Of a DNA stretch of 64,000 nt, positions 26,777-29,301 are shown piece by piece. This DNA is from an uncultured delta proteobacterium. Lineage in GTDB: Bacteria; Desulfobacterota; Binatia; Binatales; Binataceae. The notes beneath the pieces were generated by a model. That model made no database searches and was not told the origin of the DNA. It saw only the letters and a list, made by a program, of their open reading frames with translations. Where the stretch lies: the NCBI GenBank assembly GCA_963711565.1, contig CAVQEQ010000004.1, positions 672,001-736,000 on the forward strand, given 5' to 3'. Every line of letters begins with the position of its first letter. Position 1 is the stretch's first letter. Position numbers and translations under genes: made by a program.

Positions 26777-26805
26777 TTGACAGTCGGAAGGGCGCTACCT
26801 ACACT
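26777..26805 (+). promoter_or_regulatory. Sigma-70 promoter of tRNA-Gly
   Basis: TTGACA-N17-TACACT, 9 nt before the tRNA. Confidence 0.8.
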
Positions 26806-26814
26806 CGCGTCAGA

Positions 26815-26889
<75 letters not shown>

Positions 26890-27076
26890 CGATTTCTCAC
26901 AGAAGAATCAACTACTTGTGAAGATGAGCGTGTCGCTACTGCTGAACTGAGACGGGGAAGTAGGAGAAGAGCCCGTCCTCTGCCGTCGAGACCCGAACCA
27001 CCATCCCTCCATCGACGAGATTGGTGTCTCGTGCCGCACTTGACGCTCGCTAGACTGATCGGGAAGAATTGCGTCA

Positions 27077-27219
27077 CGGCGCCGACCGGTCGCCGAGCTG
27101 TGGAACATCCGCCCCAGCCGGAGTTCTGTTAGCGAAGGGGAGTTGCCCTCACGGTCGTCGCTTTCACAGGCCATCTCTCAACACCGCGTCGCTGGTGGGA
27201 CGAAGGTGTAAAGAGGAGG
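27077..27219 (+). ncRNA. Candidate structured 5' leader RNA (four tandem stems, the last covering the RBS)
   Basis: Stems CGGCG/CGCCG, GCTG/CAGC, CTGT-AGCGA..TCGCT-ACAG with inner AGGG/CCCT, and CTCT-ACACC-CGTC..GACG-GGTGT-AGAG overlapping GAGGAGG. Upstream TTGACG (27040) and AAGAAT (27064). Confidence 0.5.
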
Positions 27220-27226
27220 CTTGTCC

Positions 27227-28294
27227 ATGACCAAGCACGGCAGTTTCAAGAAGGTCGTCCGCCGCCACGCTGAGGAAACGGGTCAGCGCTACACCGAAGC
27301 GCTCACCGACCTTGAAGGGCTCCAAGCCCGGATGTTTCACCAGCCCGTCGGTGAGCGTCTGGTCGCACATCTCCGCGATCACTACGGCATCGGCGCGGTC
27401 GCCGCGACGAAGGCCAGTCAGCATCATGACCACGTCTTTCGCGTTGACCGCAGCGACGGCGACCCGTGGATTGCGCGCGCGTTCTCGCCGGCCCGACCGC
27501 GGGCCGGGGTCGAAGGCGATGCCACAATCCTGCGGTTCCTCGAGCGGCACGACTACCCGGCGGAGCGGCTCGCGACCGACGACGCGGTGTCGGCGTTCGA
27601 CGACTCAACCGTCCTCGTCACCCGATTCGTTCCCGGCGGGCCGCTCCCCATGGCCGTCGGACACGAGGGCAGCGAGAAGTTCGCCATCATGGGTGACCTG
27701 CTCGGACGGCTGCATACTCTGCCGTTCGACGTGTCCGCCAGCCGCCCCGGTGGGGCGAGCGGGGATGATCCCAGCCGCGAGGGCAGCCCGCGTCAGGACC
27801 TGATGGCGGCGCTCGCGTTCCTCGACGCGGTCGACACGAAGGTCGCTCCGGCCGAGCGCGAGCGATTCGAACGGCTCCGCGATCGGGTGCGCTCGGCCGA
27901 CGACGGCCAGGGCCTGCCCGAGGCGTTGCTGCACGGCAACCTCCTCCACGCTCCGGATCACGTGATCCGGAGCGAGCAAGGGCCGGTGGCGATCAACTTT
28001 AAGGCGGCCGGCCGCGGCCCGCGCCTGGCGGACTTTGCGTGGCTGATGTGGGGCACCTGGGGCAACGCGGACTGGATCAAACTGGCCGTAGACGCGTACC
28101 GCCGGCACGTCGAGTTGACCGACGACGAGCTCGAGCGGCTCGAGGCGGTGATGTACATACGGCCGCTGTACCTGGGTTGCTTCAGCTACCGGCGCGACCT
28201 GGTCAACGGCCGCCCGCCGAAGGAAGTGTGGGGCTTCGTTAACCCCGAGCACATCGGCGCAATTGCAGCCGCAACCCGAGCCGCCTGCCGCTGA
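27227..28294 (+). CDS. APH/homoserine-kinase-II fold protein with short basic N-terminal helical extension and degenerate catalytic motifs
   Basis: VFRVD, ILRFLE, MGDLLGRLH, LPEALLHGN, AINF, GPRLADFAW. Strong RBS GAGGAGG. Confidence 0.8.
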   Translation: MTKHGSFKKVVRRHAEETGQRYTEALTDLEGLQARMFHQPVGERLVAHLRDHYGIGAVAATKASQHHDHVFRVDRSDGDPWIARAFSPARPRAGVEGDATILRFLERHDYPAERLATDDAVSAFDDSTVLVTRFVPGGPLPMAVGHEGSEKFAIMGDLLGRLHTLPFDVSASRPGGASGDDPSREGSPRQDLMAALAFLDAVDTKVAPAERERFERLRDRVRSADDGQGLPEALLHGNLLHAPDHVIRSEQGPVAINFKAAGRGPRLADFAWLMWGTWGNADWIKLAVDAYRRHVELTDDELERLEAVMYIRPLYLGCFSYRRDLVNGRPPKEVWGFVNPEHIGAIAAATRAACR

Positions 28295-28380
28295 TCGGTA
28301 CTCCCACTGCGCGCGACAAGTTCGATCACCTCGGAACCTATCGCGAGGTCGGCGCTCCTGCCTCGCTGCCCTTCCGTGCC

Positions 28381-28416
28381 GGACGTGGCCGGTTCGACCC
28401 CGGTCGCCCGCTCCAC
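28381..28416 (+). repeat. attR-like duplicate of the tRNA-Gly 3' half
   Basis: Matches the tRNA T-arm, acceptor strand and CCA with one mismatch. Confidence 0.88.
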
Positions 28417-29301
28417 TCATTCACGATTCTTCAGCTGCTGACCTTCGCCGAGTCCGTATACCATCGCGGTTTTGGTGGTGCCAAGTTTGATCCATTCCGC
28501 GCAATCGAGCTGCACCCTTTTGTAATACTCTTCAGAGAGCTCGAGCGACTCCTTGCTTACCTCGTCGAGCCGGTCGAACTTGCACTGAAAGGCGAACTCG
28601 CCCGATAGCGATTTCTCCAGAGCGCGGCTGCGCCAGATCGCGACAGTCGTCTTACCCTTGAAGTGGTGTCCGAAGTGAATGATGCCCATCGTATTTTGTA
28701 CTTCTTCGACGGCCACGTTGTTCACCAGCATCATTTTGGTCCGGGGCCTGATGTCTATGCGCTTGAGGGTGGGAAAGGCTTTGGCGATGTCCTCGATGCC
28801 GCGGTCGAGCTCGATCTTGGGCGAGGTGAGCACGCATCCATGCGAATAAACGCTGCGCATCCCGCCGAGGCGGTCGCGCTCGAGCAACAGTTCTTCTTTA
28901 AACTTTATCTCGTCGTGGCCACCCAATTGCGGACGCACGTCGATGGCGGCGGCATCCTTGAGCTCCGGCGCGCGGTACTTGAAGGTCAGCTCATGGCCGG
29001 GGCGGGGCCATCCCTGGTCGTAAAAAGTGCGTTTTCGCAAAATGAAGTGGTTGTTGTAGAGGTCGAACTGCGGAGTGTCATAAAAGAGCACTTCTCGAAC
29101 CTGGCTGTCGAACGCGTGCTCGTCCACATCAACCTTGATGTGGAGCTTCTTAAGGGTCTTGGAAGCTGCTTCCCAAAATTCGAGGAAACCATTTTTGCTC
29201 GTAAAACGATCGGGCTGAAGGAGGATTTTATACTCGCGGTAGTGAACTACGTCGCCAGCGAGATGCTGCGTTTCGGGATGCTTGCTTATGTGCTTGTCCA
29301 T
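28417..29301 (-). CDS. Hypothetical protein, probable CYTH (triphosphate tunnel) superfamily
   Basis: REYK near the N-terminus, REVLFYDTPQFDLYNNHFILRKR, ELTFK, KFKEE, C-terminal TKT. Confidence 0.6.
   Translation of the reverse strand: MDKHISKHPETQHLAGDVVHYREYKILLQPDRFTSKNGFLEFWEAASKTLKKLHIKVDVDEHAFDSQVREVLFYDTPQFDLYNNHFILRKRTFYDQGWPRPGHELTFKYRAPELKDAAAIDVRPQLGGHDEIKFKEELLLERDRLGGMRSVYSHGCVLTSPKIELDRGIEDIAKAFPTLKRIDIRPRTKMMLVNNVAVEEVQNTMGIIHFGHHFKGKTTVAIWRSRALEKSLSGEFAFQCKFDRLDEVSKESLELSEEYYKRVQLDCAEWIKLGTTKTAMVYGLGEGQQLKNRE

Follow-up and report, generated by a model that had tools for sequence, protein, structure and literature searches.

A widespread, apparently uncatalogued cassette of kissing-loop leader RNA and N-terminal peptide, a candidate for translational autoregulation, drives a pseudokinase-like gene in a tRNA-Gly islet

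In autogenous ribosomal-protein leaders, the gene product binds its own leader and limits its own expression. Cobalamin riboswitches have a regulatory kissing loop, and second-messenger riboswitches precede diverse genes. The 'protein-binding candidate' motifs described in the accessible part of PMC11109978 are likewise structured 5' UTRs, with the protein encoded downstream as the presumed binder, and the supplement of that work holds 107 protein-binding and 427 unnamed candidates. ANTAR proteins, as presented in the accessible part of PMC8934654, carry a small helical RNA-binding module within multi-domain regulators that act on structured 5' UTRs, the target RNA having two hexaloops with conserved positions 1 and 4; stem-loops overlapping the ribosome-binding site (RBS) are mentioned there for Mycobacterium. 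Here, a locus within a window of 64,000 nucleotides (the whole stretch of DNA that was analysed) is compared with these systems. The comparison of its relatives points to a widespread cassette, RNA plus peptide, that appears to be uncatalogued. No description of it was found in the literature available outside subscription journals, in which PMC11109978 was covered in part; the supplement candidates of that work may hold the motif.

On the forward strand of the window, a sigma-70-type promoter (27040..27069) carries both hexamers named in a preliminary description of this DNA, the -35 box TTGACG (27040) and the -10 box AAGAAT (27064-27069), with an 18-nt spacer. The 1.9-kb region has two such promoter-like sites, whereas shuffled sequence would be expected to give 0.1. 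The promoter is followed by a leader of about 150 nt (27078-27223) and by the ORF at 27227-28294. As first described, the stretch 27070-27235 is predicted to fold into four tandem stems, at -72 kcal/mol (z = -2.55), with none of 200 shuffles as stable. These comprise the P1 hairpin (27078..27094, GGCG/CGCC; 99% paired across families, with double changes); the P2 stem (27097..27133), whose covariation-supported 7-nt terminal loop CCCCAGC (27112-27118) is the putative 5' kissing strand; a conserved purine junction, GAA here and AAA in most families, together with P3 (27134..27150, GGGG/CCTC), both defined by comparison across families; and the long P4 stem (27167..27223), defined by fold and alignment, whose loop GCTGGTGG (27191-27198) is the putative 3' kissing strand and whose base pairs over the RBS. 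The 3' loop of the window has one extra T relative to the family sequence GCTGGGG, as does metagenome locus L032, and forms five contiguous pairs plus two, with a one-base bulge. The last stem, placed by the preliminary description at 27175-27215, is real and covers the Shine-Dalgarno sequence GAGGAGG (27213..27219), predicted to be sequestered in the P4 base (unpaired probability 0.15); its perfect pairing was an idealisation, the stem having bulges and an extra outer helix, CAGGCC/GGCTTG. The RBS helix is 98.6% paired, with one-sided changes only. The kissing loop, the loss of both catalytic Asp residues and the tRNA-Gly attachment repeats presented below go beyond that description.

The leader had not been recognised as a known riboswitch class, and no Rfam 15 covariance model matches it: the hits in the window region were a tRNA and two sub-threshold sRNA matches inside the ORF, and 8 diverse module loci gave no leader match either. 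The ORF is spanned in part by contigs from four soil or metagenome RNA runs, and relatives from one of these runs span the leader from about 27087 and the leader-ORF junction, with none at 26944-27065; strand, start and level are invisible in these contigs and DNA was possibly present, so they are no proof of transcription.

Other fusions of the peptide are preceded by the same architecture. After P1 comes P2, capped by a 7-nt loop; the purine junction and P3 follow, and a stretch that varies separates them from P4, which carries a second 7-nt loop complementary to the first, and from the RBS. Among 76 kinase-family loci with enough upstream DNA, the leader was present in all but a few. A perfect 7-bp loop-loop complement was found in 139 of 198 distinct leaders, compared with 57 of 1,980 shuffles and 33 of 552 cross-pairings. 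When the loops were chosen independently, a procedure that left 30 of the 198 leaders unparsed, 142 of 168 were fully paired, in 23 distinct combinations. At the three central kissing positions, which the loop-picking patterns leave unconstrained, 23 of 37 unique combinations pair, against a mean of 7.6 and a maximum of 16 in 10,000 permutations. In the 5' domain, 9 of 13 pairs exhibit double changes and none of 500 shuffles scores as high, the alignment having been fitted to that same structure; in the kinase-family alignment, 97.8% of the cells pair, against 42-55% for slid controls. Within this family, the leader p-distance is 0.147, compared with 0.35-0.39 at four-fold sites. Thus, chance folding and hitch-hiking of the leader are ruled out by the loop-complement test and the low leader p-distance.

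Of 61 kinase-family loci, 58 have a -35 box (TTG[AC]C) 30-45 nt upstream of P1; outside this family, TANNNT directly precedes P1 in 59 of 107 loci, as against 4 of 321 control windows. The placing of these promoter elements suggests that the RNA is likely to form the very 5' end of the transcript. The predicted unpaired probability of the RBS was 0.23 in module genes (n = 61) versus 0.405 in 40 control genes, with a p value of 0.005 that leans on related sequences. By family, the medians predict a paired RBS in the kinase (0.17), AHSA1 (0.25) and TPR (0.02) groups, whereas it is not clearly paired in the nitrilase (0.40), DUF1835 (0.52) and BtrH (0.40) groups; according to these models, RBS sequestration is not general across families. 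In most families (L111-L190), the 5' strand of P2 reads CCTCC, which is anti-Shine-Dalgarno-like and could pair alternatively with the RBS; the window subfamily is without it. A divergent leader subtype, mostly from actinobacterial plasmids (L012-L015, L097, L099, L101, L102, L104, L105, L197, L211), has complementary loops and a different junction, and two Streptomyces plasmid copies with an MP-starting peptide (L098, L100) have in common a shorter, different upstream motif.

The first 30 codons of the ORF (27227..27316) encode the portable peptide, a helix-turn-helix hairpin according to a low-confidence prediction, in which M1, K8, R12, T18, G19, Y22 and A25 are invariant across families. 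The ORF begins as the preliminary description had quoted it, but the basic character given there to the segment is faint in this copy: with 6 K/R versus 5 D/E (net charge about +1), the window peptide is weakly basic overall. Of 1.84 billion protein clusters searched with a profile, 4,393 match at E <= 0.001. The hosts span six or more phyla, those named including Actinomycetota, Acidobacteriota, Myxococcota, Planctomycetota, Gemmatimonadetes and Thermomicrobiaceae, and the peptide is also found on rhizobial plasmids and on 10 viral-collection contigs. It has no match in Pfam and no sequence match in the PDB, residues 1-36 gave no usable match in the ESM Atlas, and no ANTAR match was obtained in Pfam for the window protein or for 16 peptides.

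Across 60 kinase-family genes, divergence at four-fold sites is 0.39 in the peptide codons and 0.35-0.39 elsewhere, and the amino-acid distance is 0.144 in the peptide versus 0.148 in the former active-site region. Since four-fold sites are free and residues are conserved, selection acts on the peptide, and its conservation only as RNA is ruled out. Structure prediction from the single sequence gave a pLDDT of 40. In a model based on an alignment of 124 sequences, residues 1-27, with two short predicted helices, remained below 50, so that the fold of the peptide is only a low-confidence prediction; a homodimer prediction score of 0.02 is no evidence either way.

The coupling between RNA and peptide was followed with an RNA model, R1, which comprises P1-P3 only and misses the divergent plasmid subtype (L012-L015, L097, L099, L101, L102, L104, L105, L197). 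In 82 of 100 sources, 48 of which are training rows, R1 gave a single match per locus, always directly before the peptide, with one weak match elsewhere in 513 kb. An independent set of 150 evenly drawn Actinomycetota genomes, selected with the centre genome left out, yielded 27 RNA matches, in 19 genomes (about 13%), and 30 peptide matches. Twenty-five of the 27 RNA matches stand directly before a peptide match (22 of 24 without the unpublished G036, G083 and G155), and the other two are truncated 5' halves with neither P4 nor an ORF. On visual inspection, the motif with its complementary loops is apparent in four of the five peptide matches lacking an R1 match; the fifth is L260. The peptide also occurs without a visible leader in L198-L200. 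Comparison across fusions indicates that the leader travels with the peptide and not with the C-terminal domain; the shared covarying structure sought upstream of homologues is present and follows the peptide. None of the refuting conditions set by the preliminary description went against it in the computational tests.

The leader has been lost in 4 of 67 kinase-family loci. All four carry 2-11 lesions at conserved peptide positions, with the body 81-89% conserved, and in two of them the second peptide helix is deleted in frame; two further loci with damaged leaders have in-frame peptide deletions too, although these cases of co-decay are few and two of the four leaderless loci, L047 and L055, look like one event. 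The peptide is free of lesions in 45 of the 67 loci. Adjacency of the leader and peptide DNA alone explains their joint transfer, though not their joint conservation. Leader identity and peptide identity are weakly correlated overall (rho 0.22, p 0.08). Lys17 accompanies 80 of 85 AAA-junction leaders and none of 50 GAA-junction leaders, the latter found with several partner domains, a hint of RNA-peptide contact that shared ancestry could also explain. No neighbour gene recurs across families and none is present in more than 6 of the 67 kinase-family loci, which rules out operon control. Overall, the comparison supports a leader positioned behind a conserved promoter, a covarying structure that includes the loop-loop pairing, protein-level selection on the peptide, a pairing of RNA with peptide that is almost one-to-one irrespective of the domain downstream, and a peptide that decays once the leader is lost.

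The segment had been proposed to be portable, and indeed it caps at least a dozen unrelated domains. Fusion partners include nitrilase, BtrH_N with DUF4872, DUF4287 with AHSA1, DUF1835-like, TPR, FHA and FtsK domains, as well as bifunctional nuclease (BFN), glyoxalase, sigma-70, PP2C-like and intact APH kinase domains and several unnamed proteins; L259, L249 and L255 are the sigma-70-like and bifunctional-nuclease-domain fusions, and a plasmid copy is a stand-alone peptide ORF of 40 aa.

In the window, the partner (27347..28294) is a predicted APH/RdoA-fold pseudokinase body in which the D, N and D of the parent family are replaced by N238, D244 and N257. It has no Pfam match above cut-off, and NCBIfam gives weak APH and RdoA matches. 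PDB sequence searches found no match for this body, for one nitrilase fusion or for one BtrH fusion, so that the catalytic-residue calls in the latter two were made from the general motifs of these families. The alignment-based model of the body (pLDDT 79.6, confident outside residues 1-27) resembles YihE 1zyl (Foldseek E 1e-8, TM 0.56-0.61), and also homoserine kinase and macrolide or aminoglycoside kinases. Among 1,686 scored relatives, the best 120 are 73-92% identical, the named ones being from Devosia, Terracidiphilus and Dehalococcoidia. Of the 121 family members among the matches listed, 119 have Asn at position 238; at position 257, 120 have Asn or Gln and the remaining one has Ser. 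The body is 30% identical to the intact kinase L258, whose HPD and VDW motifs align with N238 and N257, and both Asp are kept in 120 of 120 relatives of L258 among the matches listed. The HxD motif provides the catalytic Asp of such kinases and the D-W/F motif the metal-binding one. Because both have been lost from a kinase fold, the window family is read as a pseudokinase, and it probably represents a conserved pseudokinase lineage; an active resistance kinase is ruled out by the replacement of both residues. Arg at the usual ATP-binding Lys position is found in 116 of 120 parent-family relatives among the matches listed and, being common to the whole parent family, is no sign of inactivation.

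A dead partner domain is not a requirement, since 21 of 120 intact related kinases among the matches listed carry the peptide together with both Asp. A FastTree phylogeny of the kinase bodies, rooted at the midpoint and built from 24 peptide-bearing and 49 other rows after every second peptide-less row had been dropped, places peptide-bearing kinases in two separate clades, a split weakened by a long branch. FtsK fusions keep Walker A. The nitrilase-fold fusions (L011, L103, L188 and L257; 48 among the matches listed) keep the Glu of FPEG and presumably lack the catalytic Lys and Cys. A perfect 26-nt inverted repeat lies within the window ORF at the degenerate catalytic loop (27949-27974), with a similar match in L002 and L004. 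In two genus relatives (L002, L006), the leader is intact and the kinase gene is frameshifted early, by decay or assembly error. Further fusions of the parent kinase family (P0240-P0359) involve methyltransferase (PF04072), esterase (PF00756) and PF02036 domains.

The cassette of the window lies beside a tRNA-Gly(CCC) gene (26815..26889), the integration target, whose 3' half forms the left attachment repeat (26852-26890). The right repeat (28378..28416) is 39 nt long and 95% identical to the tRNA 3' end. With the tRNA 3' end duplicated in this way, 26891-28377 is read as a 1.5-kb islet, in which the kinase-fold ORF is the sole gene. The locus thus shares with tRNA-integrated islands the duplicated tRNA 3' end and an empty site in relatives, but not an integrase of its own, none being found among the ORFs of the islet. 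Of 18 further genomes from the genus, 6 have the cassette; their copies are 82-94% identical to it, and the conservation sets in at or just before the -35 box. The tRNA-Gly site is empty in G013 and G017, has the same arrangement as the window in G009 and metagenome locus L032, contains a different 1.8-kb insert between the same repeats in G001 (G001:C33:49700-51900), and holds the cassette plus about 23 kb of extra DNA in G007 (G007:C1:3573300-3601042); tRNA-Gly(CCC) is an insertion hotspot in the genus. The host genome has a single cassette copy. A draw of 150 further genomes from the same phylum gave no R1 match, a result that suggests horizontal acquisition and shows that false positives are rare. 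A second promoter-like site (10/12) at 26777-26805, before the tRNA, could read into the islet. Beyond the right repeat, a 294-aa ORF on the reverse strand (28417-29301) with no Pfam match is found in most genus relatives, in three copies in G017. On a Frondihabitans plasmid (L102:80-3070), a module gene stands within an array of at least 14 tRNA genes.

On balance, these comparisons make it probable that the peptide binds its own leader and exerts translational feedback on its own protein. The promoter, the kissing-loop leader and the first 30 codons would travel as one cassette before unrelated genes; the peptide would bind the kissing-loop-locked leader of its own mRNA, and the bound leader would hold the RBS closed and limit synthesis of the protein. 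Such feedback may give a horizontally moving gene a host-independent expression level. We infer physical binding, repression as the sign of control and the gene itself as the target, the latter being the simplest choice because no neighbour is conserved. In the window copy, the cassette would drive a catalytically degenerate APH-fold protein acting as a ligand-binding or sequestering protein.

The preliminary description also took the fused domain for a ligand sensor, which agrees with part of the data. Even granting that the peptide binds, it is rather doubtful that a ligand on the fused domain loosens or tightens the feedback, and this cannot hold for every family. In favour of sensing at this locus is the degenerate state of the kinase. 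The nitrilase fusions presumably have lost the catalytic Lys and Cys, and DUF1835 and TPR domains are known as C-terminal extensions of ECF sigma factors, as stated in the accessible part of PMC7826278, both of which also make the idea attractive. However, sensing is not required, because the peptide is carried by intact kinases and by FtsK fusions with their Walker A, and one copy stands alone with 40 aa; with intact kinases and ATPases in the set, it is plausible only for some lineages. In a broader reading, which we consider unlikely, the cassettes would be one-component RNA regulators, in which a 30-residue module and its kissing-loop operator are mounted on dead enzymes or binding folds, and the sensing or soaking of small molecules switches their own translation across phyla. 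The pseudokinase, pseudo-nitrilase, AHSA1, glyoxalase, DUF1835 and TPR domains would then be exchangeable sensors of a kind of protein-assisted riboswitch.

An orphan riboswitch would share many features of the leader, including a compact fold of several stems, a kissing loop, a last stem whose base holds the RBS, a position at the very 5' end of the transcript, an invariant unpaired core that could equally be a small-molecule pocket, and downstream genes as diverse as those of second-messenger riboswitches. The RNA would bind a metabolite, ion or second messenger, and the peptide would have a separate job, such as degradation tag, partner recruitment or localisation. We regard this as improbable, since it leaves unexplained why this single peptide accompanies the RNA almost everywhere and why the peptide decays after leader loss, and no shared pathway links the partner domains. 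A stable ribonucleoprotein is quite improbable; in it the RNA, either released or still part of the mRNA, would hold the fused domain, inhibit it or act as its scaffold, in the manner of a type III antitoxin or a Y RNA. The rigid pseudoknotted RNA, its strong sequence conservation, the nucleases and ATPases among the partners (BFN, FtsK) and the occurrence on plasmids, viral contigs and islets are in keeping with such a particle; nevertheless, the leader is a single unit with one R1 match per locus and without the tandem RNA repeats of type III toxin-antitoxin systems, most partners are not toxin-like (no toxin family appears among their Pfam matches), and the overlap of the last stem with the RBS in the kinase family fits cis control.

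There is a slim chance that RNA and peptide are coupled without touching, the peptide acting as a nascent chain on the ribosome or both binding a third host factor. The peptide match starts at residue 1 in 126 of the best 150 of the 4,393 clusters, with a conserved M-T start, as for a co-translational signal; however, the cassette persists in hosts of many phyla, and the tracking of residue 17 by junction type fits direct contact better, shared ancestry being possible. A function at the DNA level, with a helix-turn-helix-like peptide binding an operator or the end of a mobile element, is highly improbable: the two short predicted helices, the tRNA-integrated islet and one weak peptide match to a phage repressor would agree with it, but many G-U pairs and one-sided changes keep pairing on the sense strand only, the covarying loop-loop pairing spans about 80 nt, the element has a fixed place between promoter and RBS, tRNAs lie inside the fetched flanks at only 11 of 198 module loci, and no such leader precedes the phage repressor.

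An RNA family present in about 13% of the sampled Actinomycetota genomes is thus absent from Rfam, and a peptide family of thousands of clusters is absent from Pfam. If the peptide binds its leader, as we favour, the cassette would be a minimal, host-independent RNA-peptide pair of about 240 bases, already grafted by nature onto many proteins. Both the RNA-binding fold and the kissing-loop architecture would then be new, synthetic biology would gain a ready-made feedback part, and several dead-enzyme families would acquire a function. With 23 loop variants available from nature, as well as subtypes of both the RNA and the peptide, direct tests and orthogonal pairs are easy to design.

Among known systems, the APH, RdoA (YihE) and homoserine kinase type II proteins share the predicted fold of the window body, but the window family is without the catalytic and metal-binding Asp, both of which the listed parent-family relatives keep. 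Cobalamin riboswitches resemble the leader in being multi-stem RNAs with loop-loop pairing near the RBS and differ from it in that the cassette has no Rfam match, no cobalamin genes among its partners and an obligate peptide. By analogy, the cassette would work most like autogenous leaders and ANTAR proteins. As in the former, a structured RNA lies in the gene's own 5' UTR and adjoins the RBS; ribosomal-protein leaders are tied to one protein family, whereas no ribosomal protein is found downstream or among the partner domains of the cassette, whose RNA and 30-aa module are found with at least a dozen unrelated domains. With ANTAR proteins, the likeness lies in a small helical module placed in multi-domain proteins and, putatively, acting on a structured 5' UTR. 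In contrast to the two hexaloops of the ANTAR target, the loops of the cassette have 7 nt, are variable and are complementary to each other, and its peptide, which does not match ANTAR, is N-terminal and tied to its own leader.
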